A DNA stretch of 64,000 nucleotides from an uncultured Spirochaetota bacterium (GTDB taxonomy: Bacteria > Spirochaetota > UBA4802 > UBA5550): the NCBI GenBank assembly GCA_963827275.1, contig CAWHAA010000001.1, positions 96,001 to 160,000 on the forward strand, given 5' to 3'. The position numbers were made by a program, and so were the translations under genes. The notes under the pieces are model-generated. The model was not told the origin of the DNA and did not search any database. It worked only from the letters and a program-made list of their open reading frames with translations. Every line of letters starts with the position of its first letter. The stretch's first letter is position 1. Positions 23,422 through 44,003 of the stretch are shown in pieces.

Positions 23422-24615
23422 ATGAGCGGCGTCGAAATCAAGAAAAGCTACGAAGAGATCAACAGGAAGATACAAGAGGGGAAGGCCGTTGTCGTGACCG
23501 CGGAAGAGATGCCGGAAATCGTGGCCTCCGAGGGCGTTGACGGCGCTTTTAAAAAAGTTGACGTGGTCACCACCGGCACCTTCGGTGCCATGTGCTCTTC
23601 CGGCGCGTTCATCAATATCGGTCACACGAAGCCGCGGATGAAAGCGACGAAGGTATGGTTCAACAACGTGGAAGCCTACGGCGGCATCGCCGCGGTGGAT
23701 TGCTATATCGGCGCCACGCAGGTGCAGGAGAACGATCCGCTGAACATGGTCCATCCCGGGAGATTCAAATACGGCGGCGGCCACGTCATAGAGGACCTGA
23801 TAGCGGGGAAGAGGATCAAGCTCAAGGCCGTCGGGTACGGTACGGACTGCTACCCGCTGAAGGAATACGAATCGACGATCACCATCGATGACCTGCGCGA
23901 CGCCACGATGTTCAACCCGCGCAACTCCTACCAGAATTACAACTGCGCCGTGAACCTGTCGAAGAAGACCATCTATACCTACATGGGAATACTGAAACCC
24001 GATATGGCAAACGCATCATTTTCGAGCGCGGGCCAGCTCAGCCCACTCCTGAACGACCCCTACTACTGGACCATCGGCACCGGCACGCGGATATTCCTCT
24101 GCGGCGCGGCGGGCTCGGTGGTGTGGCACGGCACCCAGCACGCGCCGGACTGCAGGCGGGGAGAGAACGGCGTCCCCTGCGAAGGGGGCGGCACCCTCGC
24201 GGTCATGGGCAACATGAAGGAGATGGACCCCCGGTACGTGCGCGGCGCCTCCTTCACCGGGTACGGCTGCAGCATCATGATCGGCATCGGCATCCCCATC
24301 CCGATAATTAACAGGGACATGGCCTATTTCACCGGCCAGACCGACAGGGACCTCCGCTGCCAGGTCATAGACTACGGGAACGACTACCCGTCCGGGATCG
24401 GCAGGTCCCTGGGCGAGGTGAGCTATGCCGAGCTGAAAAGCGGCAGGATAGCGTTCATGGGAAAAACAATAGACGCGGCGCCCATGTCGAGCTATCCGAT
24501 GGCGAGGAAAATAGCCATTGAATTGAAAGAGTGGGTCAAGAAGGGCTTCACCATCGGCGTGCCGCAGACGCAATTCCCGACAGTGCCGCGCGGGAAGGAC
24601 AATGAAGCGCGCTGA
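23422..24615 (+). CDS. Homocysteine biosynthesis protein (DUF39, L-aspartate semialdehyde sulfurtransferase family)
   Basis: EINRKIQEGKAVVVTAEE, VDVVTTGTFGAMCSSGA, GGGHVIEDL, PRNSYQNY, AGQLSPLLNDP; no CBS domains. Confidence 0.9.
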   Translation: MSGVEIKKSYEEINRKIQEGKAVVVTAEEMPEIVASEGVDGAFKKVDVVTTGTFGAMCSSGAFINIGHTKPRMKATKVWFNNVEAYGGIAAVDCYIGATQVQENDPLNMVHPGRFKYGGGHVIEDLIAGKRIKLKAVGYGTDCYPLKEYESTITIDDLRDATMFNPRNSYQNYNCAVNLSKKTIYTYMGILKPDMANASFSSAGQLSPLLNDPYYWTIGTGTRIFLCGAAGSVVWHGTQHAPDCRRGENGVPCEGGGTLAVMGNMKEMDPRYVRGASFTGYGCSIMIGIGIPIPIINRDMAYFTGQTDRDLRCQVIDYGNDYPSGIGRSLGEVSYAELKSGRIAFMGKTIDAAPMSSYPMARKIAIELKEWVKKGFTIGVPQTQFPTVPRGKDNEAR

Positions 24616-25319
24616 GCGGTCATACCGTGATTACGCGGATACGGCCCGGTGGAAAAGCTTCAGGGTCAAAGTCGAGACATCAGACCTGTACATCAGGGCG
24701 GGCTCCGACCTGTCGGACCGGGCGGAGCGGACCGTGCGCGGACTCAGGGACCAGATCTTCCGTCACATCGCGCGCCAGAACGAATTCCTGACCTCATATA
24801 CGCCGGTGGAGCGCCTGACCGGATGCGCCCCCGTCATCGACATGATGTATGACGCTTCCGAACAGGCCGGGGTGGGCCCCATGGCCGCCGTCGCCGGCGC
24901 CGTGGCGGAATGCACGGGGCGGGAGCTGATGGATGCAAGCGGCGAGCTGATTATCGAAAACGGCGGCGATATATGGATGCGGATAACCGATCCCGCCTCT
25001 ATACGCATATATCCGGGAGGACATAACTTCGACGCCGTATCGATAAAAATCAGTCCCGATCGCACGCCCTGCGGGGTCTGCACGTCATCCGCGCGGATCG
25101 GCGTCGTCCTTCAGCTTCGGCAAGGCGGACGCCGCCACCGTGATCGCGCCCGGCGCTGCCCTGGCTGACGCGATCGCCACCGAGGTATGCAACCGGGTGA
25201 AAGTCGAGGACGACATGGAAGGCGCCGCCCTCTTCGGCATGCGGTGCGGCGCATCCGGCGTCGTCGTCATATACCGCGACCGTCTTGCGGCGCAGGGCGA
25301 TGTAGAGCTGACAGATTAA
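24602..25319 (+). CDS. UPF0280/ApbE-like protein (frameshift near 25104)
   Basis: VGPMAAVAGAVA, IENGGDI, GVCTSS..G.SFSFGKADA after correcting one base. Confidence 0.85.
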
Positions 25320-25333
25320 CGTGGAGAACAGCC

Positions 25334-25753
25334 ATGAACGCAAAAAACGTGCTTCTCATATTCGACAAGAAGATCATGTACAAGCCGCTCATATTCCGCC
25401 TGGCAAAGGATTTCGATGTCGTCTTTAACGTGCTCGAGGCGAAAATCCTTCCCAAGCTTGAGGGCCGGCTCATCCTTGAGCTCCGCGGCACGGAAGAATC
25501 AATCACGACGAGCATTGACTACCTGACCGGAGAAGGTGTGGTGGTTGAGCCGCTTACCGACAAGATCGTCAGGGACGATGACCGCTGCATCAACTGCGGA
25601 GCGTGCACCTCGGTCTGCCGGGTGGACGCCCTCAGTATTGATCGCGTCTCCATGGAAGTAACGTTCGACCACGAGAAGTGTGTTGCCTGCGGCATGTGCA
25701 AGATTGCCTGCCCCGTGGGTGCGATGTCGGGGAAGAGTATCGATCTGGATTGA
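25334..25753 (+). CDS. NIL-domain 4Fe-4S ferredoxin
   Basis: NIL domain (KPLIFRLAKDFDVVFNVLEAKI) plus CINCGACTSVC and CVACGMCKIACP. Confidence 0.88.
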   Translation: MNAKNVLLIFDKKIMYKPLIFRLAKDFDVVFNVLEAKILPKLEGRLILELRGTEESITTSIDYLTGEGVVVEPLTDKIVRDDDRCINCGACTSVCRVDALSIDRVSMEVTFDHEKCVACGMCKIACPVGAMSGKSIDLD

Positions 25754-25857
25754 CCGATAACTATCGGTGCCAGGTGGGGTCAGAGTAAGCAGTTTACCGA
25801 TAACTATCGGCACCGGCAGGGGGTCAGAGCAGTTAATGTACCGATAACTATCGGCAT
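25753..25857. repeat. Three-copy palindromic repeat array
   Basis: CCGATAACTATCGG at 25754, 25797 and 25841 (periods 43, 44), separated by GGGGTCAGAG-containing linkers. Confidence 0.9.
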
Positions 25858-25902
25858 TTCAAAGGCTTATTTCCCCCTTGATGTCCTGTAACCCCCTTAA
25901 AC

Positions 25903-27096
25903 CTATATAATCCCCAGCTTTTTGCCTACTTTTTTGAAAACCTCAAAGCTCCGGTCAAGGTCCTCGGTCGTATGGGTAGCCATGACACCGAGCCGAATTC
26001 GCGATTCAGCCGGCGGCACTGCCGGGTGCACGATGGGCGAGGCGAAAACCCCTTCGTCGAAGATCATCTTGTTAAACATCATGGTCTTTTCCAGGTCGCG
26101 AATCAGGAGCGGCACCACGGCCGTCCGGGAAGGACCGGTATCGAATCCCAGCTCTTTCAGTCCCTTGATAAAGTAGTTGATGTTGTTCCAGAGCCTCTCC
26201 CGCCACTCGGGCTCCTCATCAAGCAGTTCAAATGAACGGCATATGCCGGCCACCGTCAGGGGCGGCAGGGACGCGGAGAAGATATAGGCGGACGCGTTAT
26301 GGCGCAGGTGATCGATGAAATCGGCCGGTCCTGCCACGAATCCGCCGACTGCGCCGGCGAACTTCGAGAACGTCCCCGCTATGACGTCCGGCGCATGCGG
26401 CATGTCGAAATGGTCAGGCAGGCCGTAGCCGCGCTTGCCGAGAACGCCCAGGCTGTGGGCTTCATCGATGAGAAGGAGCGCCCCGTGCTCCTGCTTGATG
26501 CGGTACAGCGCCGGAAGGTCGGCCCAGTCGCCGTCCATGCTGTAGACGGAGTCGACCAGGACGAGCATCCTGTTGTATTTATTCTTGAGGCGGGCAAGGA
26601 GCGAATCAAGGTCCTCGGTGTCGTTATGAAGCCACATTCTCTTGTCGCTGCCGGAAAGGGTCACGCCGTCAACGATGCTCCGGTGCACCAGGCTGTCCAT
26701 CACCGCCACGTCTCCCTTGCCGATGGTGGCCTGTATCGAGCCGAGAAGCGCCTGGTACCCGCTTGCCAGGAGAACGCACGCTTCGCGCTCATACAGACGC
26801 GCTATTTTTTCCTGTAATCTGTAATGGATATCGGTGGTGCCGCAGGCCAGCGGCGAGCCGCCGATGCCGAGGCCGTATTTGTCAATGGCGTTCCGCACGG
26901 CCTTCAACACTTCCGGGTGGGTGGAGAAGCCGAGATAATTATTGGAGATAAAATTGATGCGCTCCTTGCCGCTTACCACGATGCGGTTCGCGCAGGCGGA
27001 AGAGACCTCAAGGCTGTACGTGTATATCTCCTCTTTTCGCAGCATCGACAGGAGCGCCGCCTGCTGCTTCATGGCATCGCTAATGAGTTGGCTCAT
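25903..27096 (-). CDS. PLP-dependent alpha-oxoamine synthase, serine palmitoyltransferase-like
   Basis: SNNYLG, VYSMDGD, IDEAHSLG, GTFSK (PLP lysine), YIFSASLPP, IRLGVMATH; in an operon with ACP and FAAL genes. Confidence 0.8.
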   Translation of the reverse strand: MSQLISDAMKQQAALLSMLRKEEIYTYSLEVSSACANRIVVSGKERINFISNNYLGFSTHPEVLKAVRNAIDKYGLGIGGSPLACGTTDIHYRLQEKIARLYEREACVLLASGYQALLGSIQATIGKGDVAVMDSLVHRSIVDGVTLSGSDKRMWLHNDTEDLDSLLARLKNKYNRMLVLVDSVYSMDGDWADLPALYRIKQEHGALLLIDEAHSLGVLGKRGYGLPDHFDMPHAPDVIAGTFSKFAGAVGGFVAGPADFIDHLRHNASAYIFSASLPPLTVAGICRSFELLDEEPEWRERLWNNINYFIKGLKELGFDTGPSRTAVVPLLIRDLEKTMMFNKMIFDEGVFASPIVHPAVPPAESRIRLGVMATHTTEDLDRSFEVFKKVGKKLGII

Positions 27097-27146
27097 GGAA
27101 TAATCCTCGCAAAATAAAATCGTACAACAATCAGGGCGTGCCGGTG

Positions 27147-27395
27147 TCAGGCCAGCTTTTTCTCCAGATATTGAATGACATCAATCACCGTCTGGAGCCC
27201 CATGATTTCATCAAGGTCCGGCTCAAAATCGTATATCTCGGTTATCCGTGAAATGGCTTCCATGCTCTTGAGGCTGTCGAAGCCCAGGTCCTCAAGGAAC
27301 CGGTCGCCATCCTTTACCTGCTCCGGTTTTTTCCCCGCCAGTTTGGCTACGATGGCCAGGAAATCTTTTCTTATCTTATCCCCGGAAACTCCCAT
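27147..27395 (-). CDS. Acyl carrier protein
   Basis: DLGFDSL phosphopantetheine motif; GAGGTG RBS. Confidence 0.9.
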   Translation of the reverse strand: MGVSGDKIRKDFLAIVAKLAGKKPEQVKDGDRFLEDLGFDSLKSMEAISRITEIYDFEPDLDEIMGLQTVIDVIQYLEKKLA

Positions 27396-27526
27396 ATGTG
27401 TCACCTCTTCATGATGGTACGCCTTCACCGCAACGGCCGGACACGCCTCGCCGTCACATAATGGATCACGCGGTAATATTTACAATGAATTTTTAGCGCA
27501 GCGCCGCTATTCCATGCTGACCGCAA

Positions 27527-29353
27527 TCAGCGCTTCAATCGTCTTCGGAACAGGTGGAAATGGCTCAGGATGAAAGTCCGTGCCAGCACAAGAATATTCC
27601 TGCTTTTTCTCGGGAACAGCTCTCCCTCGAGGTAAAATCTCTTGCACAGATACCGCTGGGTCTTGCCGCTCGTGGTCTTCGGTATCGTCTCGCGCGGGAC
27701 AAGCCTGATATCGTCAGGCGCAATGCCGAGCTTCGCCAGTATCTCTTTGTGGACTTCCTGCTTCAGTTTTTCAAGCGCCTCCCTGTCCTTTACGGTCGTT
27801 TCGCATACCAGCACGAGGTCTTCGGTACCCTGCTCCTCGTTGTGCACGTCAAATGCCGCGCAGCAGCCGAGACGGATCCCCTTGACGGTTGAAGCGATCC
27901 GCTCCACGTCATAGGGATAAATGTTTTTCCCGCGCTTGATGATCATCTCCTTCTTGCGGCCGGATATGAAAAGCAGGCCGTCAAGGATAAATCCCATGTC
28001 CCCCGAATGGAGCCAGCCGTCAACGATGGATTCAGCAGAGGCCTTCTGATTTTTATAATACCCGCCCATGAGGCTATGGCTCTTGACGCATATTTCACCG
28101 ACCTCGCGTTCGTTGAGTGTCCGGCCCTGCTCATCGACGATCCTGATCTCCTGCCCCACGAGCGGATAGCCGACGGAAACCAGATCGATGTACTCCTTGT
28201 TGTTCTGGCTCTTTGAATCGACGGCGATATTCTCGGCTTCCAGCTTGTCCCTGTCGAAACGGCGGACAACGGTGGTCGCATCCAGCGAAGGAAATGTCGC
28301 GGCAAGGCTGTTTTCCGCCATCCCGTACACAGGGAGAAATATATTGTCGCGAAGGCCGCACGGCCTGAATTTTTCAATGAATTTATTGAGGGTTATGCGG
28401 TCCACCGGCTCCGCACCGTTCAGGGCAAGCCGCCAGGAGCTCAGGTCAAGCCGGTGGAGGTCCACGTCGTCAATCCTCGAAACGCAATAATGGTATCCGA
28501 AATTGGGGGCCACGCCCATCGTGACCCGGTAGCGCGATATGTTTTCCATCCACCAGATGGGACGAAAGATAAACGCTTCCGGCGACATCAACACAAGGGT
28601 GATGTCCCAGTACAGGGTGGTGAGAAAACCGCCGATAAGGCCCATGTCGTGGTACATGGGAAGCCAGCTGATACCGACATCATCGGCCGTCATCCGGCTT
28701 GCGACCCCGATCCCGTGGATGTTATGAAGCAGATTCTTGTGGGAGAGCATGACCCCTTTCGGTTTTCCGGTCGTACCCGAGGTGTACTGGAGGAGCGCAA
28801 GGTCATCGGTCCTGACGACGGGACACTTTTTATACTGATCTGCAGGGACGGGATCGGCGAATATTTCATCATCAAAAAGAAAACCGCCCACCAGGTTCGA
28901 AATATTCAAGAGACTGCCGGCTATCAACTTGATCTTTTCGTAGGTTATGAAGAATTTCCCCTCGCAGTCATGGATGATATGCGTCAGGTTATCAAGGTAT
29001 TTCGCGAGGTTGCTCGTACCGGCCGGCTGGCTGACCGGGACAGGGACACCGCCGGCGATGAGTATTCCAAAATAGACATAGGCGAAATGTTCCCCCGTAG
29101 GCAGCATTACAACAACCTTATCATTCTTACCGAGGCCCCGCGCCATCAGGTACTGGGCCACGACACGCGCCTTTTCCAGTACATCGCTTGCCGAGACCCT
29201 CTGCTCACGATTTTTAAGATCCATGAAGATAAGAAAATCCGGCTTATCAACAGCCCGGCGCTCAAGGACCTCGATAAGGGTCTGTGCCCTGATTTCATAT
29301 CTTTCACTGTTTTTCTGATGCGCTACGATTTGTTTCCCTGTTACCGCTGTCAT
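27527..29353 (-). CDS. Fatty acyl-AMP ligase (FAAL)
   Basis: LQYTSGTTGKPKGV, SWLPMYHDMGLIG, LDLSSWRLALNGAEPV, YGMAE followed by a FAAL-type insertion, IPKTTSGK. Confidence 0.9.
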   Translation of the reverse strand: MTAVTGKQIVAHQKNSERYEIRAQTLIEVLERRAVDKPDFLIFMDLKNREQRVSASDVLEKARVVAQYLMARGLGKNDKVVVMLPTGEHFAYVYFGILIAGGVPVPVSQPAGTSNLAKYLDNLTHIIHDCEGKFFITYEKIKLIAGSLLNISNLVGGFLFDDEIFADPVPADQYKKCPVVRTDDLALLQYTSGTTGKPKGVMLSHKNLLHNIHGIGVASRMTADDVGISWLPMYHDMGLIGGFLTTLYWDITLVLMSPEAFIFRPIWWMENISRYRVTMGVAPNFGYHYCVSRIDDVDLHRLDLSSWRLALNGAEPVDRITLNKFIEKFRPCGLRDNIFLPVYGMAENSLAATFPSLDATTVVRRFDRDKLEAENIAVDSKSQNNKEYIDLVSVGYPLVGQEIRIVDEQGRTLNEREVGEICVKSHSLMGGYYKNQKASAESIVDGWLHSGDMGFILDGLLFISGRKKEMIIKRGKNIYPYDVERIASTVKGIRLGCCAAFDVHNEEQGTEDLVLVCETTVKDREALEKLKQEVHKEILAKLGIAPDDIRLVPRETIPKTTSGKTQRYLCKRFYLEGELFPRKSRNILVLARTFILSHFHLFRRRLKR

Positions 29354-29896
29354 TTACATATCCTGTTTGATTTAATAATATTAATTGTTAAACAATGCAT
29401 GAAAAATCTCATACCGAATATTCAACAACATTATGAACAAATTTATTTGGCATAAAACAAAAGCTGAATCTGCTCCCATATAAAATATGAAGCGTTAACC
29501 ATATCATCCTGATACCACATCAAGATTTAAATACAATATAAATGTTACCATCCACAGAACAACGGGGAGGGAAACAGTGAAATACTATTTTGCGAAAGAG
29601 AACATACTATTATAATGCAATTATTATGCCAAATAGTTTTTTTATTATTGTATAACGCCTGATATATAGAGACAGTATGATTGACCGAAAAATATCAAAG
29701 AAGATCATATCAGAACTCGAAAAAAATCAACACCCTGTATCATATATGCAACAAAAAATGGACCTGAAACTGAAATTTTATAATATATCAAATGGCGCTT
29801 AACATGAAATGAGCACGGGAATATTCTTATTGACATTGACTCTGAAAAACAAATTCTCTACTTTCAATTATTTATTATTATTTTCGGGGGAATGGA

Positions 29897-30745
29897 ATGG
29901 GCAGTCACGATGACAAAATATTATCAAACAAACTGGCTATAATTACCGGCGGTTCAAAGGGGATAGGGAAAGCCGCTGCAATTGAATTTGTCAAAAACGG
30001 CGGGAACGTCTGCATTATTGCCCGTAATAAAAAAGACCTCTTCCAGGCAGCAGAAGAGATGCAAAAAGCCCGCTCCAGCACCAGCCAGGCCGTCACCGCT
30101 ATCCCTTGCGATACCACGGACATGGAAGCACTCGCTCGACTCCTCGACAGCTTCATTAAAAAAAACGGAGTGCCGGATTACCTTATGAATTTTGTGGGGT
30201 ACGCCAGGCCCAATTACATACAGAACACCACGCTCGACGATTTCAGAAAAATAATGGATACCAACTATTTCGGACAGCTTATCCCGGTCCTGGTCATCCT
30301 GCCGCACTTCATGAGAGAACGGAAGGGGCACATCGTGAACTGCTCATCGTTGCTTGGTTTCATGGGAATTGCCGGGTACGCCGCCTATTCCCCGACAAAA
30401 TACGCACTATGCGGTCTCACCGAATCACTCAGAAACGAACTCAAGCCGTATAATATACGTTTCTCCATTCTTTATCCGCCCGATACCGAAACCCCCGGAT
30501 TCGACCAGGAAAACAGGTCCAAGCCGCTCGAGGTTATGCTCATGTCCGAAACAGGCGGGCTTCTGTCGCCGGAGCAGGTCGCCAAAAAATTAATACATGA
30601 TGTTCTTAAAAATAAATACTATATACTGCCCGGCCAATCACGGCTCCTCTGGTCTATAGCGCGGCATTTTCCACGGCTCGCGCATATCATTATGGATGGC
30701 GAGCTGAATAAAGCGAGAAAAAAGGCTGCGGCAAGAAAGAAATAA
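29897..30745 (+). CDS. SDR oxidoreductase, 3-ketodihydrosphingosine reductase (KDSR/TSC10)-like
   Basis: TGGSKGIG, YSPTK (YxxxK) and YPPDTETPGFDQENRSKPLE signature. Confidence 0.8.
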   Translation: MGSHDDKILSNKLAIITGGSKGIGKAAAIEFVKNGGNVCIIARNKKDLFQAAEEMQKARSSTSQAVTAIPCDTTDMEALARLLDSFIKKNGVPDYLMNFVGYARPNYIQNTTLDDFRKIMDTNYFGQLIPVLVILPHFMRERKGHIVNCSSLLGFMGIAGYAAYSPTKYALCGLTESLRNELKPYNIRFSILYPPDTETPGFDQENRSKPLEVMLMSETGGLLSPEQVAKKLIHDVLKNKYYILPGQSRLLWSIARHFPRLAHIIMDGELNKARKKAAARKK

Positions 30746-30782
30746 CCGATCTGCCTTTCCAATACATGCAGACGTATCGCAC

Positions 30783-30816
30783 AAAAAAGAGGCCCCCGTT
30801 AGTAACGGGGGCCTCT
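30783..30816 (-). terminator. Rho-independent terminator of fcpA
   Basis: AGAGGCCCCCGTTA-G-TAACGGGGGCCTCT inverted repeat with A-run on + (U-run on -). Confidence 0.85.
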
Positions 30817-30844
30817 GCTCTCAACAATAATCGAAAGACATATA

Positions 30845-31720
30845 TTATTTGAAGTCGTTAATACGCTCGGCTTTCTTCTCATCCTGCTCGACAACTTCCT
30901 GCATCTGCTTATAATGAGGTGACTCGATCCCATACTTCAGCTCAACCGCCTGGAGCATGCACCGGTTCTTCTTGTTTTTATATATGTTGATCTCATCTTC
31001 AGATGCATGCTTGTATTTCGCCAGCACCTTCTCCATGTAACCATAGCAGCTTGCCATATATTTATACGCCCAGATGTCCTTGCTGTTCTCTTCGGAAATG
31101 CTCAGGTATCTCTCCAGGATGGCGATACACGGCTTAAAATTCTGGAGATCATACTGGGTGGATACATATACCTGGAAGAGGCGGCTCATAAAATTGACGA
31201 ACTTGGGTTCCTGCCTGACCTCCTGGTGCTGAATCTGATCAAGATAGTCGATGGACCGCGTCAGGTAGGTGACCGATTTCATCTTGGCTTCCATTTTTTT
31301 CATGGCGACCTGGCGCTGCTCCTGGTTCTTACGGTCAATCTCCTGCCAGTACCACCGCTCGTTCAGGTTCTTTTTCTCCTTGTTGGCGGCCTTGATCTTT
31401 ATGACGTCATTCTCCATGTCTTCAAGAATATCAAGCGCGGTTGAATATTCATCGATCGCGAGCTTTAAGAGGTTGTCGGAATATTCCTTGTTAAGTTTTT
31501 CAAGCTCCTCAATCGCCTTGATATAGGGCTTGAAATCCCGGATCCTCCATCCGGTAACCTCAACATCGCTGAATTCATTTTTCAGTTCGGCGGCTTTTTT
31601 ATCATCCGTTTTCTTGTCAGCTGCCTGCTGCGCAGAAATCCGGGATTGCATCCCGAGGCCGAGGAAAACAGCCGCTACCAGGACAGCAATTATCACGCCA
31701 TACGACTTTCTTGGTTTCAT
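30845..31720 (-). CDS. fcpA: Flagellar coiling protein A-like sheath protein
   Basis: Signal peptide; WYWQEIDRK, YDLQNF..CIAILERY and YKYMASCY match recalled Leptospira FcpA motifs. Confidence 0.75.
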   Translation of the reverse strand: MKPRKSYGVIIAVLVAAVFLGLGMQSRISAQQAADKKTDDKKAAELKNEFSDVEVTGWRIRDFKPYIKAIEELEKLNKEYSDNLLKLAIDEYSTALDILEDMENDVIKIKAANKEKKNLNERWYWQEIDRKNQEQRQVAMKKMEAKMKSVTYLTRSIDYLDQIQHQEVRQEPKFVNFMSRLFQVYVSTQYDLQNFKPCIAILERYLSISEENSKDIWAYKYMASCYGYMEKVLAKYKHASEDEINIYKNKKNRCMLQAVELKYGIESPHYKQMQEVVEQDEKKAERINDFK

Positions 31721-31993
31721 ACAGTAACCCCTCTCAGCATAATGAATCGGACCATGGCGGCACAAAAATATCCAAGTGCAACGCCACACATTAATATCGT
31801 CATAATTATGGTAAAAATTCAATTTTTTTCTTACTTTTATCTATATTATAAAAATAAAAAAGTCCCCTGCCCGACTCAGATGAGACAAACACAGGCCGTG
31901 ACTTTCTTTCAAAATCATCGATGATATCCCACGATAAATTTTGTTGACATTATCGTATGATTATTAAAACCTAAATTCAATATCAGATATTCC

Positions 31994-32806
31994 ATGAAAA
32001 CAGAGACAAAAGCCCAGCATAATACACTCTATTGCGATTTTTGCGATAGGACAGGCATTATCCATAATCCCCATTATGAAAAACTCGGGGAAAATGCCCT
32101 GACGCCCTGTCCTAAATGTGTCATAAAAAAATGTCTCTGCGGGGGCGAGGACCCATATTATTACTACAAAGACGGCCAGATCGAGGACTGCTTCTGCCGT
32201 GAAACCCGGATGAAGATCATGAAGATAAACATGATATACAACCGTTCGGGGATAAACAAAAAATACCAGTGGAAACGTCTCAATGACTTTAAATCCGTGA
32301 GCAAGCAGGCGGAAGAGGCGAAAAACGCCGCGTATGACATTGTCCGGCAGTTTCCTGACGTGCGAAAGGGCCTCTACCTCTGGGGCAATGCCGGCACCGG
32401 CAAAACCCTGCTGGCTTCGATCATCCTTACGGAAATCATCATACGCCGCGCTGTTGAAGGCAGGTTTATCAGCATATCACGGAATTTTTTTAAAAGCATA
32501 CAGGAAACATTTCATGAAGGGTCCGAGACGTACGGCGAATCAGCCAGGATTGAAAAAGAGCTGGCCGATGTTGATATCCTGGTAATAGACGATTTCGGAA
32601 TACAGAAAGACACGGAATGGAAGCAGGAAACCCTGTATGACCTGGTTGACGCGCGGTACGAAGCGGAAAAATTCACCATCTTCACATCGAATACCAACCC
32701 GCACAAGGCCCTCAAGGACCTTTCACAGGGAAGGATCCTCTCCCGCATCAAAGAAATGTGCAGAATAATTGAGATCAGCGGCGACGACTACAGGGATAAA
32801 TTATAG
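31994..32806 (+). CDS. DnaC/IstB-like AAA+ ATPase with N-terminal Zn-binding Cys motifs
   Basis: CDFC, CPKC, GNAGTGKT (Walker A), LVIDDFG (Walker B), IFTSN, RILSRIKEMC. Confidence 0.85.
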   Translation: MKTETKAQHNTLYCDFCDRTGIIHNPHYEKLGENALTPCPKCVIKKCLCGGEDPYYYYKDGQIEDCFCRETRMKIMKINMIYNRSGINKKYQWKRLNDFKSVSKQAEEAKNAAYDIVRQFPDVRKGLYLWGNAGTGKTLLASIILTEIIIRRAVEGRFISISRNFFKSIQETFHEGSETYGESARIEKELADVDILVIDDFGIQKDTEWKQETLYDLVDARYEAEKFTIFTSNTNPHKALKDLSQGRILSRIKEMCRIIEISGDDYRDKL

Positions 32807-35720: not shown

Positions 35721-36140
35721 ATGGATGATAGACTCATTTTTCTAATATCGAAAGCGGGACATGCCCTGAAAAATTATATGAAGCGAGAGTGCATAAACGA
35801 AGGTGTTACAATTTCCTCGGCGCAGGCGGGTATGCTTATGGCCCTGAAGATGCGCGATGGGCTTTCAATGAACCAGATGAGTGAAATAATTTCTATTGAT
35901 AACGCCGCAGTCACACGTCACGTGGATGATCTTGAACGAAAGGGGCTGGCCAGGCGGGAAGCGGATGCAGGCGACAGGAGAAAAACCATTATCCGCATTA
36001 TGCCAGAAGGAATTGCGGAAGCAGAAAAAGCGAAAGCTGTTGCCCGGAGAGTCAACAGCATGATAAAAGATGGGTTCACCGAACAAGAGATTGAAATCTT
36101 CAAACGTATTCTGAGCAGTTTTTTTGAAAAATTCAAATGA
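35721..36140 (+). CDS. MarR family transcriptional regulator
   Basis: IDNAAVTRHVDDLERKGL..R....DRR winged-helix motif. Confidence 0.92.
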   Translation: MDDRLIFLISKAGHALKNYMKRECINEGVTISSAQAGMLMALKMRDGLSMNQMSEIISIDNAAVTRHVDDLERKGLARREADAGDRRKTIIRIMPEGIAEAEKAKAVARRVNSMIKDGFTEQEIEIFKRILSSFFEKFK

Positions 36141-36158
36141 TGAATTACAGGAGGTCAT

Positions 36159-36617
36159 ATGATCACGCCATTATCAGCATATAATAAACTAAAAGGTCTC
36201 CCCATGGGTAAATATATTTTTTCAAGGGTGGTATGCATCATGGCACCCTACTTCAGTACCATCAAACCACGTTTTGTCGAGTTGAAGCCGGGATATTGTG
36301 AAATAAAGATGAGAGACCGCAGGGCGGTACGAAATCACCTTAACAGCGTACATGCCATTGCCATGTGTAATCTCTGTGAGCTGGCCGGTGGTATGGCTCT
36401 TGACGCAACCCTGCCTGCAGACTTGAGGTGGATACCCAGGGGAATGAATGTTGAATATGTCAAGATCGCACGAAGCAACCTGAAAGGAACCTGCTCAATA
36501 GCCGGCAACACGATAAAAGGAGAGGGGCCTCTTCCAGTCACTGTCAGCATCACTGACACAAGCGGGACCGAAGTTATGAAGGCCATTATCAATATGCATA
36601 TTACGAAAAGAAAATAA
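36159..36617 (+). CDS. Hotdog-fold thioesterase (DUF4442-like)
   Basis: APYFSTIKP, NHLNSVHAIAMCNLCELAGG, RWIPRGMNVEY. Confidence 0.85.
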   Translation: MITPLSAYNKLKGLPMGKYIFSRVVCIMAPYFSTIKPRFVELKPGYCEIKMRDRRAVRNHLNSVHAIAMCNLCELAGGMALDATLPADLRWIPRGMNVEYVKIARSNLKGTCSIAGNTIKGEGPLPVTVSITDTSGTEVMKAIINMHITKRK

Positions 36618-36630
36618 ATGATTGTAAATA

Positions 36631-37293
36631 CTACAGCGGGGCGATACACGCGGCAGAATCATTCTTTGGCGAGTTGACCAGCGTCGAGACAGGATATGCT
36701 GTCATTTCATCTGCCGGATACGGCACCAGGAGGGCCAGTGCTTCATCCGGTGTAGCTTTAGCATCAAGCCACATCTTCTCATGTTCCCGGGGGATAATGA
36801 CCGGCATCCTGTCATGGATTGGCCTCATGATATCATTGGCCCCTGTTGTTATAATGGTACACGTATGCAATTCTTTGCCCTGCGGTGACATCCATGTTTC
36901 GTGGAGACCTGCAAAACCAAATGGCTGCCCTGAAGTAAGCGTAATATAAAAAGGAACCTTTATCTTCCCTTCCCGTTTCCATTCATAAAAGCCGCTCGCA
37001 ATAATGAGACATCGGCGAGATTTAAATGCCGTTTTGAAACTGGGCTTCTGGCTTACCGTTTCGGCCCTGGCATTAATCATGTTCTGTCCTATTGAAGAAT
37101 CCTTTGCCCACGAGGGGACAAGCCCCCACTGGAAACTAACCAGGGCCCTCTTCCCATCACGCGCCAAGACTGAGATTATGCTGCTTCCCGGAGGTATGTT
37201 ATATGCCGGGATAACATCAACAAGAACATCATCGATTAGAAATGCCCTGATGATAGTGCTGACAGGCTCTAGTTGGGCGAATCGTCCACACAT
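36631..37293 (-). CDS. SOS response-associated peptidase (SRAP/YedK/HMCES family)
   Basis: N-terminal MCGRF, WGLVPSW, INARAET, RCLI.ASGFYEW, IHDRMPVI. Confidence 0.95.
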   Translation of the reverse strand: MCGRFAQLEPVSTIIRAFLIDDVLVDVIPAYNIPPGSSIISVLARDGKRALVSFQWGLVPSWAKDSSIGQNMINARAETVSQKPSFKTAFKSRRCLIIASGFYEWKREGKIKVPFYITLTSGQPFGFAGLHETWMSPQGKELHTCTIITTGANDIMRPIHDRMPVIIPREHEKMWLDAKATPDEALALLVPYPADEMTAYPVSTLVNSPKNDSAACIAPL

Positions 37294-37400
37294 TGGATTT
37301 TTTCACTTTTTATTTTAAGATATGAAATTGCTAACAATTCCTGACATAACAATCAAGAATTAATTCAAATAAAGATGAGAGTCTTAAAGGTTTTAATGTA

Positions 37401-37435
37401 ACCGATAACTATCTATAGCAATCGGTGTCAGAGTA
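37401..37435. repeat. Degenerate copy of the dispersed palindromic element
   Basis: ACCGATAACTATC...ATCGGTGTCAGAGTA contains both family motifs. Confidence 0.7.
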
Positions 37436-37550
37436 GTTAATATCCTGTATAAGTCGCCGGTATTAAGGAAAATTTGAATAATCTCATTTTTAATATATAC
37501 ACTACAAGCATTCTTTATATTTTATTTTATATATTACCAAAAAAAAATAC

Positions 37551-37577
37551 TAATCCCACCGAGAAAGTTGCCGATAA
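37551..37577 (+). promoter_or_regulatory. Sigma28 (FliA)-type promoter
   Basis: TAAT-N15-GCCGATAA. Confidence 0.6.
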
Positions 37578-37623
37578 AAGAAATGGGGAAATATAATAAT
37601 TGGGTAATCCTGGTGAGGTTTTT

Positions 37624-37794
37624 ATGAATGTAGCACCGAATGAATACCAGACGGTAATTGACAGCATTCAGATGAGCAACAATCTTCTGAAAATGCTGGC
37701 AGCGGCAAAACTTGGCATCGACCAGAAAATGATGAAAGCTGATGTAATTTTCAACGTTGCCGGTATTGGCGAGCATATAGATATTCAAGCATAA
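37624..37794 (+). CDS. Small YjfB-like putative motility protein
   Basis: GAGGT RBS; 56 aa ending G.GEHIDIQA, like the YjfB C-terminus; downstream of a sigma28 promoter. Confidence 0.5.
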   Translation: MNVAPNEYQTVIDSIQMSNNLLKMLAAAKLGIDQKMMKADVIFNVAGIGEHIDIQA

Positions 37795-37855
37795 AAAACA
37801 AGGCGAACAACCAGTCCGCCTCATGCCATCAATCTCGAACATTTATACAAGAGCA

Positions 37856-38230
37856 TTATTGTACATTAATTGATATCTTTCTTGGTTTGACCGCTTCATG
37901 CTTTTGCAGCACAAGGGTCAGTACCCCATTTTCAAAGGATGCACTGATCTTTTCCCGGTCAATGTCATCACCCACATTGAATTTTCGATAATAATCATAA
38001 TTTGAAAATTCGGAATACTTTAATTCCTTGTTTTCAGATTTGTATTGCCCCACTCCCCCGCGAATTTCCAGCTCATTATTTTCGATAGTGACATCAAGGT
38101 TGTCCCTGACCACTCCGGGCATTTCAAGCTTCAAAGTGTACTGGTCATCAGTTTCATAAATGTCCGCCAGGGGGACCAGTGCTCTTTTCTCATCAGAGTA
38201 ATTATCAGCCTGTACTTTATCGTTAAACAT
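37856..38230 (-). CDS. Hsp20/alpha-crystallin protein
   Basis: PLADIYET, EMPGV, ASFENGVLTL. Confidence 0.92.
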   Translation of the reverse strand: MFNDKVQADNYSDEKRALVPLADIYETDDQYTLKLEMPGVVRDNLDVTIENNELEIRGGVGQYKSENKELKYSEFSNYDYYRKFNVGDDIDREKISASFENGVLTLVLQKHEAVKPRKISINVQ

Positions 38231-38244
38231 ATCGGTGCCTCCGG

Positions 38245-38652
38245 TTATTTAATTTCTATCCTTTTAGGCTTTGCATCCTCGCTCTTTACAAGCTTGATGC
38301 TCAAGATGCCATCGGCAAGATTTGCATTGATCGCATTCATATCAACCCTGTAGGGCAGTTTTACAAATTTCTTGAATTTACCGAATTGCCGTTCTTTGCG
38401 TATATAGGGATTGTCCTCATAGTCGCCTTTTTTCTCCCCTTCAATGACAAGGCTGTCATTGACAAGTTGAATATCCATCTCTGCCGACTTCACTCCGGGA
38501 ACCAGGGCCCTGACCTCCAGCTCATCTTTTCCTTCGTAAATCTCAATTTGCGGAAATTCACGGCTCCTCAATTTCCCGGCATTCTCCATAAAGAATGAAT
38601 TTACTACATCCCGTAAATTTAATACCTCATCGAAGATATCATAAGTATACAT
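38245..38652 (-). CDS. Hsp20/alpha-crystallin protein
   Basis: VPGV, ERQFGKF...LP, ANLADGILSI, KPKRIEI. Confidence 0.92.
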   Translation of the reverse strand: MYTYDIFDEVLNLRDVVNSFFMENAGKLRSREFPQIEIYEGKDELEVRALVPGVKSAEMDIQLVNDSLVIEGEKKGDYEDNPYIRKERQFGKFKKFVKLPYRVDMNAINANLADGILSIKLVKSEDAKPKRIEIK

Positions 38653-38662
38653 GTCATGCCTC

Positions 38663-39112
38663 CTAATTGATATTAATCTTGATCTTTTTTGTTTCAGCCG
38701 CTTTTTCTTTTGGGATATCAATCTTCAATACACCATGTTTGAATTCTGCCTTGATGTTATCGGCTTTCACTGATTCAGGCAGCCTGATAGACCTTTGAAA
38801 TGATCCATACGAACGTTCCATGATCAGCGCGATCTTATCATCGCCCTGACGAAATTCTTCGCTCTTCTCACCTTTTATCGTGAGAATATCGTTCTCAATA
38901 CTGACCTCCAGGTTTTTCTCATCGATTCCGGGTACATCAGCCTTAATATAAATACCCTTCCCATCTTCATGGACATCAATTGCCGGTACCCATTCCGGAT
39001 CAAACATGCTCGAAGGTTTCATATTGAAGAAGTCATCAAATATATTTGAGATGCTTCTTCGAAAAGCTTCAACTTCAGAACCATTATTACGTTTCTTGAT
39101 TGCAAACGTCAT
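38663..39112 (-). CDS. Hsp20/alpha-crystallin protein
   Basis: PAIDVHE, DVPG, ERSYGSFQRSIRLP, AEFKHGVLKI; AGGAGG RBS. Confidence 0.93.
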   Translation of the reverse strand: MTFAIKKRNNGSEVEAFRRSISNIFDDFFNMKPSSMFDPEWVPAIDVHEDGKGIYIKADVPGIDEKNLEVSIENDILTIKGEKSEEFRQGDDKIALIMERSYGSFQRSIRLPESVKADNIKAEFKHGVLKIDIPKEKAAETKKIKININ

Positions 39113-39140
39113 ATAGCACCTCCTTGATTTGATTTTATTG

Positions 39141-39167
39141 TTAGCACTCGTTATCAATGAGTGCTAA
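39141..39167. promoter_or_regulatory. CIRCE element (HrcA operator)
   Basis: Exact TTAGCACTC-N9-GAGTGCTAA upstream of the hsp20 operon. Confidence 0.95.
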
Positions 39168-39325
39168 CAATAAAATATAAAAAATTACCCCCATCGTCAA
39201 CATGAATTAAAAAATTTTTTTTTATGGATATAAAATTTCAGGAGAGATATAGATGTGACAATTTAAAATTATAATATATTTTAATTTGTTTATTTCAATT
39301 AATAAATGATACAAAAAAGCTATAT

Positions 39326-39341
39326 ACCGATAACTATCGGT
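39326..39341. repeat. Single copy of the dispersed palindrome
   Basis: ACCGATAACTATCGGT, followed by TGTCCCC. Confidence 0.8.
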
Positions 39342-39387
39342 CATTGTCCCCCTATATCATATTGACTGCCGGTGCGATTATTAAATT

Positions 39388-41115
39388 TTACAATTTTTCC
39401 AGGCGGTTTTCAAAATCAGCTTTGTATATCTTCTTGCCCAGCCTGTTCTGGAGCTCGATAATCTCTTTTAAAATATCCGTAGTGGTGAGAGGATTGATGG
39501 TGATGGCCCGCAGCACGACGATGTCCTGCGCGAAATAATTCGGGGCGTCGAACATGGTCCGCGAGACAAACGTGTTGTCATCTTCCCGAAGCTCCTTGTG
39601 AAGTTCAATGTTCAATTCATTCAGGACATTATTTGTATGGCGCAGGCGGCTCATCCATTTATTCCGCGCCTGGTGCTCCTGGCCGTCCGGTCTCGCCGCG
39701 TTGATCTTAAGACGGAGCTTCTCGATCTTCTCCTGGACCTCCTTGGGGACAAAACGGTAGTTGAAGATGAACAGCTCAGGCTGGTTCATGGGCTCGAAAT
39801 TGCAATGCATCTCCACGAGGCTCCGGAGCGAAGCGGTCAACTCGAACGCATGTTCAAACAGGATTCTGAACCCATCGGTCCCCAGTATCTTGAACGTGGC
39901 CCATGGCTTCAGCGCAGCGAACGGCCGTGAGCCTTCCACGCTGAACCGCCCAAGGTCCACCGAATCCTGCCGGATGATGTAATTGGAGAAGTGCTTCAGG
40001 TAATTCAGGTCCTTTTCATTTTTAAACAGGACCATGCCCATGGAGGCGGGTGAAAAGAGCAGCTTATGCGCATCGACCGTGACAGAATCAGCGTCCTGGA
40101 TGCCGTTGAAGAAATAGCGGAGCTGGTCAATAATAAGCACCGAGCCCCCCCAGGCGGCATCAACATGAAAATGCGCGTTGTACTCGTCGGCAATCCTCCG
40201 TATCTCCTGCAGGTTATCGATATTTCCCGTTTCCGTGGTTCCGGCTATTCCCACAATGGCCATGATCTTGATCCTGTCATGGCCCCGTTCGTTGTGTTCG
40301 CGGATCTGCCTGCATATCCTCTCCAGCTCATTGATATCTATCTTGTTGCGCATATCCACCGGGACCTTGATGACATTGTCATTGCCGAGCCCGATGATCC
40401 GCGCCACCTTGTCGATGGAATAATGTCCCCTCTTCGAGACGAGTATCACCGCTTTTCTGTACCCGTAGTGGAGAAAGGCCTCATGCAGGCCGGCCACCCG
40501 TATGCCGGGGAAATTACCGTCCGGACCGAATGCTTTATTCCGCGCAACAAGCAAGGCCGTCAGGTTTGCCATGGTCCCATCGGTTGTTACGTTCCCGAGT
40601 GCGACCTCCCAGTTCTGGATATGTGTTTTATAGAAACCGGCGCCTTTATTATATACGAGGCGGTGCATCCATCCGATGAGCTCCCGCTCGACAAATGACG
40701 ATGCCTTTGCCGATTCAATTTTAACCTGGTTCTGGTTCAATGCCGCGATAATCATCTCGAGAAGAATCATGAAATAGGGTATCGCGCTTGTCATGTGCCC
40801 GATATAATAGGGATTGCCCACCTTCACCGAATGGGCAATTACCTTTTTCTTGATTTCGATCAGGACGTCTTTTAAGAGCTGCGGGCGCTTGGGGATATTG
40901 ACATTCGAAAAAATCTTTTCGAGTTCGGAGAGGGGTATTTCACTATGTATCCCCCCTTTTTCTGTAAAAAAATTATGGATTAAATCAAGAAGCTCCGTCC
41001 CAAATTCTATGAATTTATCCGGCGAATCCGGCATGATAAAAAGCTTCTTAAGCTGGCTCATGTCCGGCTTTACAAGCAGTCTTCGGTGGCTTTTTTTATT
41101 TATAATAGAATACAT
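39388..41115 (-). CDS. Group II PLP-dependent decarboxylase, PanP-like aspartate 1-decarboxylase (start uncertain)
   Basis: YIGHMTSAIPYF, LNQNQVKIES.K, GIAGTTETGNID, HVDAAWGG, DSVTVDAHK. Confidence 0.75.
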   Translation of the reverse strand: MYSIINKKSHRRLLVKPDMSQLKKLFIMPDSPDKFIEFGTELLDLIHNFFTEKGGIHSEIPLSELEKIFSNVNIPKRPQLLKDVLIEIKKKVIAHSVKVGNPYYIGHMTSAIPYFMILLEMIIAALNQNQVKIESAKASSFVERELIGWMHRLVYNKGAGFYKTHIQNWEVALGNVTTDGTMANLTALLVARNKAFGPDGNFPGIRVAGLHEAFLHYGYRKAVILVSKRGHYSIDKVARIIGLGNDNVIKVPVDMRNKIDINELERICRQIREHNERGHDRIKIMAIVGIAGTTETGNIDNLQEIRRIADEYNAHFHVDAAWGGSVLIIDQLRYFFNGIQDADSVTVDAHKLLFSPASMGMVLFKNEKDLNYLKHFSNYIIRQDSVDLGRFSVEGSRPFAALKPWATFKILGTDGFRILFEHAFELTASLRSLVEMHCNFEPMNQPELFIFNYRFVPKEVQEKIEKLRLKINAARPDGQEHQARNKWMSRLRHTNNVLNELNIELHKELREDDNTFVSRTMFDAPNYFAQDIVVLRAITINPLTTTDILKEIIELQNRLGKKIYKADFENRLEKL

Positions 41116-41441
41116 AAATTGTATTTCAATATATATATAAATTGTCAGAAATTCCTGATAAAAACTACAGAGAAACGTTACTACCACTATTTATTCAAAG
41201 ACCCTTTTTACAAGCATTTTTATTCGTATAGACTGTCGGCGGCCCTATTAATAGTGCACATAAACAAATTTTATGTCATAATACGTATAAGCATACCATC
41301 CGGGGCTTATTCTGGAACTTCAAGGGTAAACACACGATACATCATGCAATACTATCAATAATTTACTCATGTTATTATCAATATCTGTCGATATTGTAGT
41401 AAGAACATAATTTATTCAATGCCACGGATGGTGAAAAAATC

Positions 41442-41744
41442 ATGGAAGATACCAGAATATGGGAATTCCCCAAAAGCATTAACATAGAAGAAGTATCAGA
41501 ATACGTCGAAAGCCTCAAAAATGTCAAGCCAGGCGAAGTGGTTACGCTTGATTTAAGCAGGACGGTATCAATTCATTCCTCATTCATAGGTTTTCTGATC
41601 CATGCCAAGCATTACATGAACAAAAACGGCGGCACGCTTGTTCTTCTTCTCTCCCTGACAGTGGAAAAAATCCTTATCATGCTGAATATTATCGATTATT
41701 TCTCGCCCGAAATCACCTCTACAATGAGAAGGAAGACCGCGTAA
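41442..41744 (+). CDS. STAS-domain (anti-anti-sigma-like) protein
   Basis: VTLDLSRTVSIHSSFIGFL motif. Confidence 0.7.
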   Translation: MEDTRIWEFPKSINIEEVSEYVESLKNVKPGEVVTLDLSRTVSIHSSFIGFLIHAKHYMNKNGGTLVLLLSLTVEKILIMLNIIDYFSPEITSTMRRKTA

Positions 41745-41909
41745 CCTTTACTGCCTTCCGTCCCATATAGAGAGGAATGGCCCGTTAAAATGTCAATTCC
41801 GGACCCTTACCCGATAATTTGTTCCATGTCTGCTGTTAAAAATAAATTGACAGGACAGAGGAATATGAGCGTATAGTAAAATACTTAAATTCTCGGGATG
41901 GGAAACGAT

Positions 41910-42194
41910 ATGAAATTCAACGACCAGCAGGTAGAATCTGTTACCGAATTATTAAAATCAATCGCGCACCCCATAAGGATGAAAATCCTCTGTTTCCTGA
42001 TGGAAGGCGAAAAAAACGTGGGCGAAATCGAGCAGCAGTTCGGATCGACAATATCAAACATCTCCCAGCACCTGACCGTCCTCAGGAAGGCAAATATTAT
42101 CGACCGCAGAAAAGAAGCAAATTTCATGTTTTATTCCCTCAAGGACACGAACATCCATAAGCTGATGGAGACCTTAAAAAACAACTTTTGTTAA
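41910..42194 (+). CDS. ArsR/SmtB family regulator
   Basis: LKSIAHPIRMKIL, NVGEI, SNISQHLTVLR. Confidence 0.92.
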   Translation: MKFNDQQVESVTELLKSIAHPIRMKILCFLMEGEKNVGEIEQQFGSTISNISQHLTVLRKANIIDRRKEANFMFYSLKDTNIHKLMETLKNNFC

Positions 42195-43976: not shown

Positions 43977-44003
43977 GCTCCCGGCGCAGCGCGGCGCCCT
44001 GCG

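Follow-up and report, generated by a model that had tools for sequence, protein, structure and literature searches.

A putative sphingolipid biosynthesis locus in a spirochaete combines an acyl-loading module with a serine palmitoyltransferase-like synthase and a KDSR-like reductase

Introduction

Could a spirochaete build sphingoid bases, and if so, with which enzymes? This question is raised by four genes located at positions 25903-30745 of a 64,000-nucleotide stretch of DNA (the window; C1:96001-160000) from the 4.13-Mb, 92% complete assembly of an uncultured member of the Spirochaetota (genome code G000). The genes encode a fatty acyl-AMP ligase (FAAL), a stand-alone acyl carrier protein (ACP), an alpha-oxoamine synthase (AOS) resembling serine palmitoyltransferase (SPT) and, in divergent orientation, a short-chain dehydrogenase/reductase (SDR) resembling 3-ketodihydrosphingosine reductase (KDSR). 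To our knowledge, bacterial sphingolipids were long considered to be confined to the Bacteroidota and some Proteobacteria, a range that has been widened by recent work.

Here, we propose that the locus probably encodes the early steps of a bacterial sphingolipid (ceramide) pathway, which would most likely be a hybrid of parts known separately from proteobacteria, Bacteroides and eukaryotes. What is new is the combination of these parts and the phylum; each part has a precedent, namely AasR, AcpR, Spt and CerS in Rhodobacteria (PMC9386255, PMC11324152) and an SDR-type KDSR in Bacteroides (PMC9278070). The literature searched, including excerpts of PMC11334938 and PMC11087976, contained no spirochaete sphingolipid pathway, with the taxon survey by Stankeviciute et al. 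2022 (Nat Chem Biol) lying outside that search.

Read from gene content, homologies, gene order and co-occurrence, the predicted pathway would begin with the FAAL, which would adenylate a free long-chain fatty acid and load it onto the dedicated ACP, the role of an AasR-like acyl-ACP synthetase. The pyridoxal phosphate (PLP)-dependent synthase would condense the acyl-ACP with an amino acid, L-serine being the most likely one, and thereby yield a 3-keto long-chain base, and the divergently encoded KDSR-like SDR would reduce the 3-keto group of this base (or of an oxo-ceramide) at the expense of NAD(P)H. The second chain would be added by a YghO/CC_1154-type N-acyltransferase (bacterial ceramide synthase, bCerS), the gene for which is located on another contig here, and the final lipid would presumably be a ceramide. 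A bacterial KDSR, and with it reduction ahead of N-acylation, has already been described for Bacteroides BT_0972 (PMC9278070).

Results

The acyl-loading module

Three genes are encoded on the minus strand and separated by gaps of 50 and 98 bp: the SPT-like AOS (25903-27096, 397 aa; Pfam Aminotran_1_2, 1.1e-55), the stand-alone specialised ACP (27147-27428, 93 aa counted from a GTG start, with an ATG at residue 12; PP-binding, 8.8e-11) and the FAAL (27527-29353, 608 aa; AMP-binding, 2.2e-68, plus AMP-binding_C_2). The classical SDR (29897-30745, 282 aa; adh_short, 9.5e-44) lies on the plus strand. The 543 bp between FAAL and SDR (29354-29896) presumably contain the promoters of both transcription units and have a G+C content of 29.1%, compared to 54.2% for the window. 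These open reading frames and Pfam matches agree in position, strand and domain with an earlier note on this DNA, made by a model from the sequence, which had likewise described the divergent intergenic region as AT-rich.

The top NCBIfam model of the FAAL is 'fatty acyl-AMP ligase' (NF006624) with 436 bits, below the cut-off of 600. With the FAAL encoded in the sphingolipid cluster of E. coli BL21, the protein shares 33% identity over 552 residues (full length, E 6e-100), and no FAAL paralogue was found in the genome at E<=1e-20. The ACP carries the phosphopantetheine site DSL and reaches 38.6 bits on TIGR00517, whereas the housekeeping AcpP encoded elsewhere in the genome scores 94.6 bits and passes the cut-off; judged by these scores, the two are distinct proteins. 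The similarity of the window ACP to BL21 AcpR is barely detectable (E 6e-4).

In the RefSeq record of BL21(DE3), yghO, a 'fatty acyl-AMP ligase' gene, an NAD-dependent epimerase gene, an ACP gene and spt are adjacent. The excerpt of PMC9386255 equates these BL21 genes with aca/cerS (CC_1154), aasR, epi/cerR, acpR and spt of Caulobacter, and reports that the Caulobacter and BL21 proteins were demonstrated to act as AasR, AcpR and Spt; AasR acylates AcpR, and acyl-AcpR is the preferred substrate of Spt. We took the co-location of genes for a FAAL-type acyl-ACP synthetase, an ACP distinct from AcpP and a synthase as the mark of such a module, and the spirochaete operon shows it in gene order and spacing, in the similarity of the FAAL to its BL21 counterpart and in the presence of a separate AcpP. 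In view of the FAAL identity of 33%, the FAAL-ACP-Spt arrangement corresponds to the loading module known from Caulobacter and E. coli B. The earlier note had presented this arrangement as a contrast to the Caulobacter-type route; this view has to be abandoned, since the module is the front end of that very route (PMC9386255, as excerpted, and the BL21 locus). Taken together, the FAAL, the dedicated ACP and the SPT-like AOS support the idea of a module that would be suited to a long-chain acyl donor.

The synthase

The translated synthase contains the motifs GTFSK, with the PLP lysine, YIFSASLPP and MATH, exactly as the earlier note had quoted them, and is the sole AOS of the genome. We assigned proteins to the AOS superfamily as fold-type I PLP enzymes with a Schiff-base lysine, a stacking histidine, an Asp-x-x-His pair and a C-terminal arginine. 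The window protein belongs to this superfamily, as H138, D211/H214 and K245 align with His138, Asp210/His213 and Lys244 of the SPT of Sphingobacterium multivorum, the roles of which are given in the excerpt of PMC10196870. Moreover, N52, H138, D211, H214 and K245 are invariant in all 16 aligned members of the synthase clade.

Among the NCBIfam models, the Bacteroidota-type SPT (SerpalmtaseCFB, NF047600) ranked first with 382.4 bits. The bioF model (TIGR00858) yielded 354.6 bits at a cut-off of 426 and the Kbl models (NF005394, TIGR01822) 346.4 bits at a cut-off of 460, which places the protein in neither family. Among solved proteins, the S. multivorum SPT likewise came first (319 bits), with a Thermus BioF/Kbl enzyme as runner-up (268) and Kbl (238-247), cysteate acyltransferases (227 and 205), Sphingomonas SPT (220), BioF (about 186) and CqsA (88) further down. 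When a profile of the 16 clade members was compared with solved proteins, the S. multivorum SPT reached 431 bits versus 371 for the next protein, and the cysteate acyltransferases 293 and 289. The S. multivorum SPT hence outranks the solved cysteate acyltransferases by 90-140 bits.

The phylogeny of the synthase was determined with a quick IQ-TREE run (LG+G4, rooted on 5-aminolevulinate synthase, ALAS) on 74 rows. Besides the window protein and its relatives, these rows cover paralogues found in 40 related genomes and, as annotated references, the Spt of E. coli BL21, BioF and Kbl of E. coli and an ACP-linked AOS of Roseomonas. The window synthase belongs to a clade of 29 rows (support 100) within a 57-row clade (SH-aLRT 99) that also holds BL21 Spt, to which it is 34% identical. 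Kbl and BioF of E. coli as well as ALAS fall outside this larger clade, and separate BioF-like and Kbl-like clades exist in the relatives. In an approximately unbiased (AU) test, uniting the synthase clade with BioF was disfavoured (p = 0.025). The comparison with other AOS families envisaged in the earlier note thus counted against BioF; a position as sister to Kbl was not rejected (p = 0.18).

The latter result speaks against a straightforward assignment as SPT, as do two further points. The score on NF047600 remains below the cut-off of 640, and the protein therefore falls outside that equivalog family; as all curated scores are below their cut-offs, the synthase belongs to no curated family. 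The SPT-like character claimed from the motifs is in this respect upheld by the nearest solved enzyme and by no curated threshold. In addition, the tree was built without Bacteroidota-type SPT, CapB/SulA and CqsA sequences, for which the score ranks among PDB entries stand in, and the phylogeny is therefore compatible with a predicted SPT but not decisive alone.

The Kbl result also bears on the explanation that the synthase has a housekeeping role as Kbl or BioF in threonine catabolism or biotin synthesis, with the FAAL and the ACP serving some other purpose. Homologues of the synthase are annotated by JGI as '8-amino-7-oxononanoate synthase' or 'glycine C-acetyltransferase', and the lead of the SPT model over the bioF and Kbl models amounts to only about 30 bits, both of which would fit with such a role. 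Nevertheless, we consider it very improbable. The cut-offs of the bioF and Kbl models are missed as well, and the genome yielded neither a BioB equivalog (best 29.6 bits versus a cut-off of 225) nor a Tdh equivalog (183 versus 458 bits), so that a role in biotin or threonine metabolism would lack its partners. Moreover, the relatives hold their BioF-like and Kbl-like proteins in clades of their own, and the operon also encodes a long-chain FAAL together with a carrier protein, joined in congeners by a bCerS-like acyltransferase.

Less easily dismissed, though still unlikely in our judgement, is the explanation that the module makes another long-chain alpha-amino-ketone or amino-alcohol lipid, the synthase being a long-chain acyltransferase other than SPT that would use alanine or glycine (yielding 1-deoxy-type bases), cysteate (yielding a capnine-like sulfonolipid) or another amino acid. 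The missed SPT cut-offs and the separation of the synthase clade from the reference Spt clade are in line with this explanation, and the solved cysteate acyltransferases are clear relatives by the scores given above. Synthases of anaerobic Desulfobacterota are 62-64% identical to the window synthase, and the excerpt of PMC11334938 connects this group with 1-deoxyceramides and sulfono-ceramides of the Black Sea. According to the excerpt of PMC10196870, the residues that hold serine in the S. multivorum SPT do so mostly via water molecules, and the sequence can therefore not decide on the amino-acid substrate. The lead of the S. multivorum SPT over the cysteate enzymes argues against this alternative, as does the failure to find a cysteate synthase equivalog in the genome (57.5 bits versus a cut-off of 324.9). 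We therefore retain SPT as the predicted function, which is indirectly indicated by the nearest solved enzyme, by the FAAL and the ACP in the operon and by the linkage to bCerS described below.

A metagenome scan with the clade alignment employed two patterns that are also common to 5-aminolevulinate synthases. Out of 80 loci, 78 could be classified (two with internal stops were dropped): 73 are ALAS and two BioF, two had no family match at E<=1e-125, and one (L060, 44% identical) ranked the SPT model first, below its cut-off. No synteny from distant phyla emerged from these 80 loci. As a separate observation, a Streptomyces plasmid (NZ_CP108162.1:398601-399761) encodes a fused SDR-AOS protein, annotated as 'bifunctional SDR family oxidoreductase/pyridoxal phosphate-dependent ...', that is 36% identical to the window synthase.

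A candidate ceramide synthase outside the window

We asked whether the genome encodes the N-acyltransferase that a ceramide pathway would require. The earlier note had seen no ceramide synthase in the window, which holds true for the window itself; a candidate is encoded elsewhere, on contig C7 (C7:144482-145606), and in the operon of congeners. The C7 protein is 33% identical to BL21 YghO over residues 8-377 of 380 (E 5e-54), is the single full-length match to YghO in the genome and gives a weak GNAT signal. The yghO gene is the stated counterpart of CC_1154, cerS (PMC9386255, Fig. 9 legend; PMC11324152). A full-length homologue and a genomic link to spt were taken to define the CC_1154/YghO-type bCerS, and both are present, the ceramide synthase activity being a prediction.

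The link is seen in the congeners. In 7 out of 16, a bCerS paralogue with 36-39% identity to the C7 protein follows directly after the synthase by coordinates, and in three of ten fetched loci (G016, G010, G001) the adjacency was confirmed on the same strand with gaps ranging from a few to 67 bp. At the matching position, the window offers 150 bp only. The operon-linked paralogue of G004 (C6:9819-10947) is present in two pieces (residues 7-195 and 206-372); this may be a broken gene, and the G004 assembly is 79% complete. Moreover, two genomes of another family in the order of the window's genome, G039 and G034, contain a three-gene bCerS-SDR-AOS cluster on one strand (L052:6424-9893 and L053:2097-5376, respectively), the AOS of which falls into the BL21 Spt reference clade. 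Taken together, the genomic context supports a tie between the synthase and a predicted bCerS-type N-acyltransferase.

Two observations caution against this conclusion. At E<=1e-30, 111 of the 301 Spirochaetota genomes sampled encode YghO-like proteins, so that not every member is necessarily a ceramide synthase and the family may be broader than this function; and G022, a 96% complete genome, contains FAAL-ACP-AOS without the SDR and without a bCerS-like match. The carriers include complete 2.8-Mb Spirochaetota genomes with approximately 29% identity, and the spread of the family could reflect either a sphingolipid capacity widespread in the phylum or other N-acyltransferase roles.

CerR (CC_1164 type, NmrA/epimerase fold), the reductase of the Caulobacter route, was not found in the genome. 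The best match reached 40 bits over residues 3-136 of 304, and the five other matches to the query are weaker and of the generic epimerase family.

The reductase

The SDR displays the motifs TGGSKGIG and YSPTK, and TGGSKGIG together with N123, S151, Y164 and K168 is invariant in 28 of 28 aligned homologues. Among solved proteins, the fungal 3-ketodihydrosphingosine reductase TSC10 (8jat) ranks first with 115 bits, compared to 91 bits for the next single-domain protein, and the alignment extends over residues 12-244 (233 residues), including the stretch PGFdxENRxKP, through the C-terminal substrate region. We designated as KDSR-like those SDRs that combine TGxxxGxG and the Asn-Ser-Tyr-Lys tetrad with specific similarity to KDSR through this region. 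The tetrad, the TSC10 alignment and the source names place the window protein among the KDSR/TSC10-like classical SDRs, in keeping with the earlier note, which had recognised the KDSR signature. With regard to the names, many homologues are labelled '3-dehydrosphinganine reductase' by JGI, and Atlas clusters likewise, these labels being KO-type annotation.

The distribution of the SDR follows that of the operon. G019 and 15 of the 16 congeners contain orthologues with 58-78% identity. Among the 40 relatives, the SDR occurs in 16 of the 19 genomes with the FAAL-ACP-AOS operon and in none of the 21 without a type-A synthase, and in 14 of the 16 SDR-bearing genomes it is encoded on the synthase contig, head to head with the FAAL.

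Several results weigh against this SDR as the reductase of the pathway. On the Bacteroides-type KdsR model NF049977 it reaches 91.7 bits versus a cut-off of 400 and ranks tenth among the 21 SDRs of the genome matching the model, none of which passes (best 138.8 bits); by this measure, the window SDR lies outside the Bacteroides KdsR family. A Foldseek search of the PDB with a model of the protein (pLDDT 87.5) retrieved generic SDRs, with TSC10 absent among the matches listed; as the generic SDRs score almost equally, the structure search does not discriminate. G021 and G022 keep FAAL-ACP-AOS without the window-type SDR, and here a FcpA-like gene directly flanks the FAAL, which makes the SDR look like a later insertion beside the operon. 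Furthermore, the SDR of the bCerS-SDR-AOS clusters in G039 and G034 best matches another SDR of the spirochaete genome (C4:12909-13676), with 44% identity compared to 39% for the window SDR, and in the SDR tree (124 rows, FastTree) a long, fully supported branch splits the window SDR from these cluster SDRs.

The structure search, the G021 and G022 loci, the C4 match and the SDR tree would fit with an alternative in which the operon is a sphingoid-base module next to which an unrelated enzyme has been inserted, reduction being carried out by the C4 SDR or, after N-acylation, by yet another enzyme. The organism-named relatives of the window SDR outside the spirochaetes, the Asgard archaea considered below, for which a link to sphingolipids is not established, would also be in accordance with an unrelated enzyme. 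We assign a low probability to this alternative. Against it stand the confinement of the SDR to operon genomes among the 40 relatives and its head-to-head position, and TSC10, the top solved relative of the window SDR with an alignment that reaches through the substrate region, is absent from the 28 solved matches of the C4 paralogue at E<=1e-22. The C4 paralogue remains a candidate alternative reductase; the KDSR-like SDR adjacent to the operon is the enzyme to which we ascribe the predicted reduction.

Kinship of the reductase with Asgard archaea

Within the SDR tree, the window SDR resides in a tight clade of 120 rows on a long, fully supported stem. Spirochaetes account for 63 of these rows in a clade of their own (support 99). 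All organism-named relatives from outside the spirochaetes lie in the remaining rows and are Asgard archaea with 53-59% identity, named Lokiarchaeia, Promethearchaeota or Promethearchaeia, in six clusters (P0190, P0192, P0197, P0209, P0231 and P0232; the window SDR is P0004). These assignments derive from the names of metagenome-assembled genomes (MAGs), which may be mis-binned. The literature searched contained no paper joining Asgard archaea, sphingolipids and serine palmitoyltransferase, and among 15 matches listed in a broader search none paired an Asgard with a sphingolipid term.

A tentative and rather doubtful extension of our proposal would be that this tight SDR family, confined almost entirely to the spirochaete lineage and Asgard archaea, is the prokaryotic counterpart of eukaryotic KDSR, that the spirochaetes gained it by transfer between the domains in anoxic sediments and set it beside an older FAAL-ACP-SPT operon, and that reduction of the free keto base would come first in the resulting bacterial pathway, in the eukaryotic order. 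If true, this would indicate sphingoid-base chemistry in Asgard archaea, and the kinship of the reductase, if upheld, would bear on the origin of the eukaryotic sphingolipid pathway.

Conservation and surroundings of the locus

A scan of genome contigs for the locus yielded 16 loci, all from Spirochaetota/Leptospirales MAGs. In the synteny survey of relatives that the earlier note had proposed, the order FAAL-ACP-AOS was kept in 10 of 10 fetched loci and the divergent SDR in 8 of 10, so that the survey turned out in favour of the locus, and the genes are grouped far more than expected by chance. This argument is tempered by the fact that the kin are not independent and that their entire neighbourhood is syntenic, and conservation alone is therefore no proof of a functional linkage.

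The sole part of the intergenic region that is conserved at the DNA level is a block of approximately 40 bp (about 29720-29759) with 84-93% identity in the loci of three of ten relatives, a candidate operator or promoter element. The whole scanned region contains ten weak sigma-70-like matches compared to 6.6 expected, and an Rfam scan of 25000-32000 revealed nothing near the gathering score. Downstream of the SDR, a likely terminator hairpin of 13 pairs (nine of them G-C) with a T tail is located at 30788-30816, a terminator-like site between the convergent SDR and FcpA-like genes.

DNA of the locus is present in metagenomes from bioreactors, wastewater, manure, sediment and freshwater (12 studies), and the host spirochaete is an inhabitant of anoxic bioreactors and sediments. 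When four RNA-labelled runs were compared with the locus, most matches were pieces of 30-40 nt that fall on the conserved AMP-binding motif. Three longer, near-identical pieces (179-263 nt) matched as well, and their libraries are flagged 'probably DNA'.

By their Pfam and NCBIfam domains, the flanking HcyBio, NIL-ferredoxin, FcpA-like, DnaC-like, FolK and UmuC genes show no functional tie to the locus. Positions 23422-25753 harbour a HcyBio-family gene (Pfam, 506 bits), a small gene matching only 'hypothetical protein' models of NCBIfam, and a NIL-domain 4Fe-4S ferredoxin gene. Below the cut-off, the HcyBio gene in addition matches 'methanogenesis marker 16', which looks like a methanogen-type homocysteine route in a spirochaete. 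On the other side, the FcpA-like flagellar coiling protein gene (30845-31822; 197 bits on NF047448 versus a cut-off of 400) encodes a divergent relative of the Leptospira sheath protein. Farther away, positions 36000-44000 form a block of low G+C content (42-46% versus 54% for the window) with genes for a MarR regulator, a DUF4442 protein, a SRAP peptidase, a 599-aa PLP-dependent decarboxylase (39388-41187) and a 593-aa protein without a Pfam match (42195-43976). On contig C7 (L051:10882-12991), elongation factor G is encoded by two overlapping open reading frames, one for the N-terminal GTPase part and one for domains II-V, which points to a frameshift or to an error in assembly or sequencing.

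Discussion

The locus would add the phylum Spirochaetota to the makers of sphingolipids. Moreover, it would illustrate a modular pathway, in which acyl-ACP loading of the proteobacterial style is combined with a synthase nearest to that of the Bacteroidota, with bCerS and with a eukaryote/Asgard-like reductase replacing CerR. As a compact four-gene set, it also bears on the open dispute as to whether reduction precedes or follows N-acylation in bacteria.

Among the known systems, the capnine/sulfonolipid pathway of the Bacteroidota comprises cysteate synthase, a cysteate-C-fatty acyltransferase (CapB/SulA) and a dehydrocapnine reductase. It shares with the predicted spirochaete pathway its logic, in which an AOS-family enzyme joins a long acyl thioester to an amino acid and an SDR reduction follows, and SulA uses acyl-ACP (PMC9304779, excerpt). 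It differs in that its acyltransferases are more distant from the spirochaete synthase than SPT is, and in the cysteate synthase, for which the spirochaete genome has no equivalog.

The eukaryotic de novo pathway consists of SPT, KDSR (TSC10/FVT1) and a Lag1-type ceramide synthase. Among solved proteins, the spirochaete SDR is closest to TSC10, with which it shares the Ser-Tyr-Lys site and the PGFxxENRxKP stretch, although no transmembrane anchor is evident on the spirochaete protein. In contrast to the eukaryotic enzymes, the synthase is a bacterial AOS of the soluble homodimer type, its acyl donor would be loaded onto ACP, and the N-acyltransferase candidate is of the bCerS and not of the Lag1 type.

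The Bacteroides pathway employs an acyl-CoA-dependent SPT (BT_0870), the 3-ketosphinganine reductase BT_0972 (NF049977) and CerS. The nearest characterised relative of the spirochaete synthase is the Bacteroidota-type SPT of S. multivorum, and, like BT_0972 (PMC9278070), the candidate reductase belongs to the classical SDRs, albeit outside the NF049977 family. The genes of B. thetaiotaomicron are unclustered (PMC9278070), whereas FAAL and ACP adjoin the spirochaete synthase; the Bacteroidota SPT uses acyl-CoA.

The Rhodobacterial pathway is encoded by five genes, aasR, acpR, spt, cerR and cerS (CC_1165-1162 and CC_1154 in Caulobacter crescentus; yghO-FAAL-epimerase-ACP-spt in E. coli BL21). 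The spirochaete genome differs from it by phylum, by a synthase of another clade than the Rhodobacterial Spt, by an ACP that barely resembles AcpR and by the KDSR-like SDR that stands beside the operon in place of a CerR homologue. It resembles this pathway in the adjacency of the genes for the synthase, a dedicated ACP and an acyl-ACP synthetase of the FAAL type, and in the presence of a YghO/CC_1154-type N-acyltransferase.

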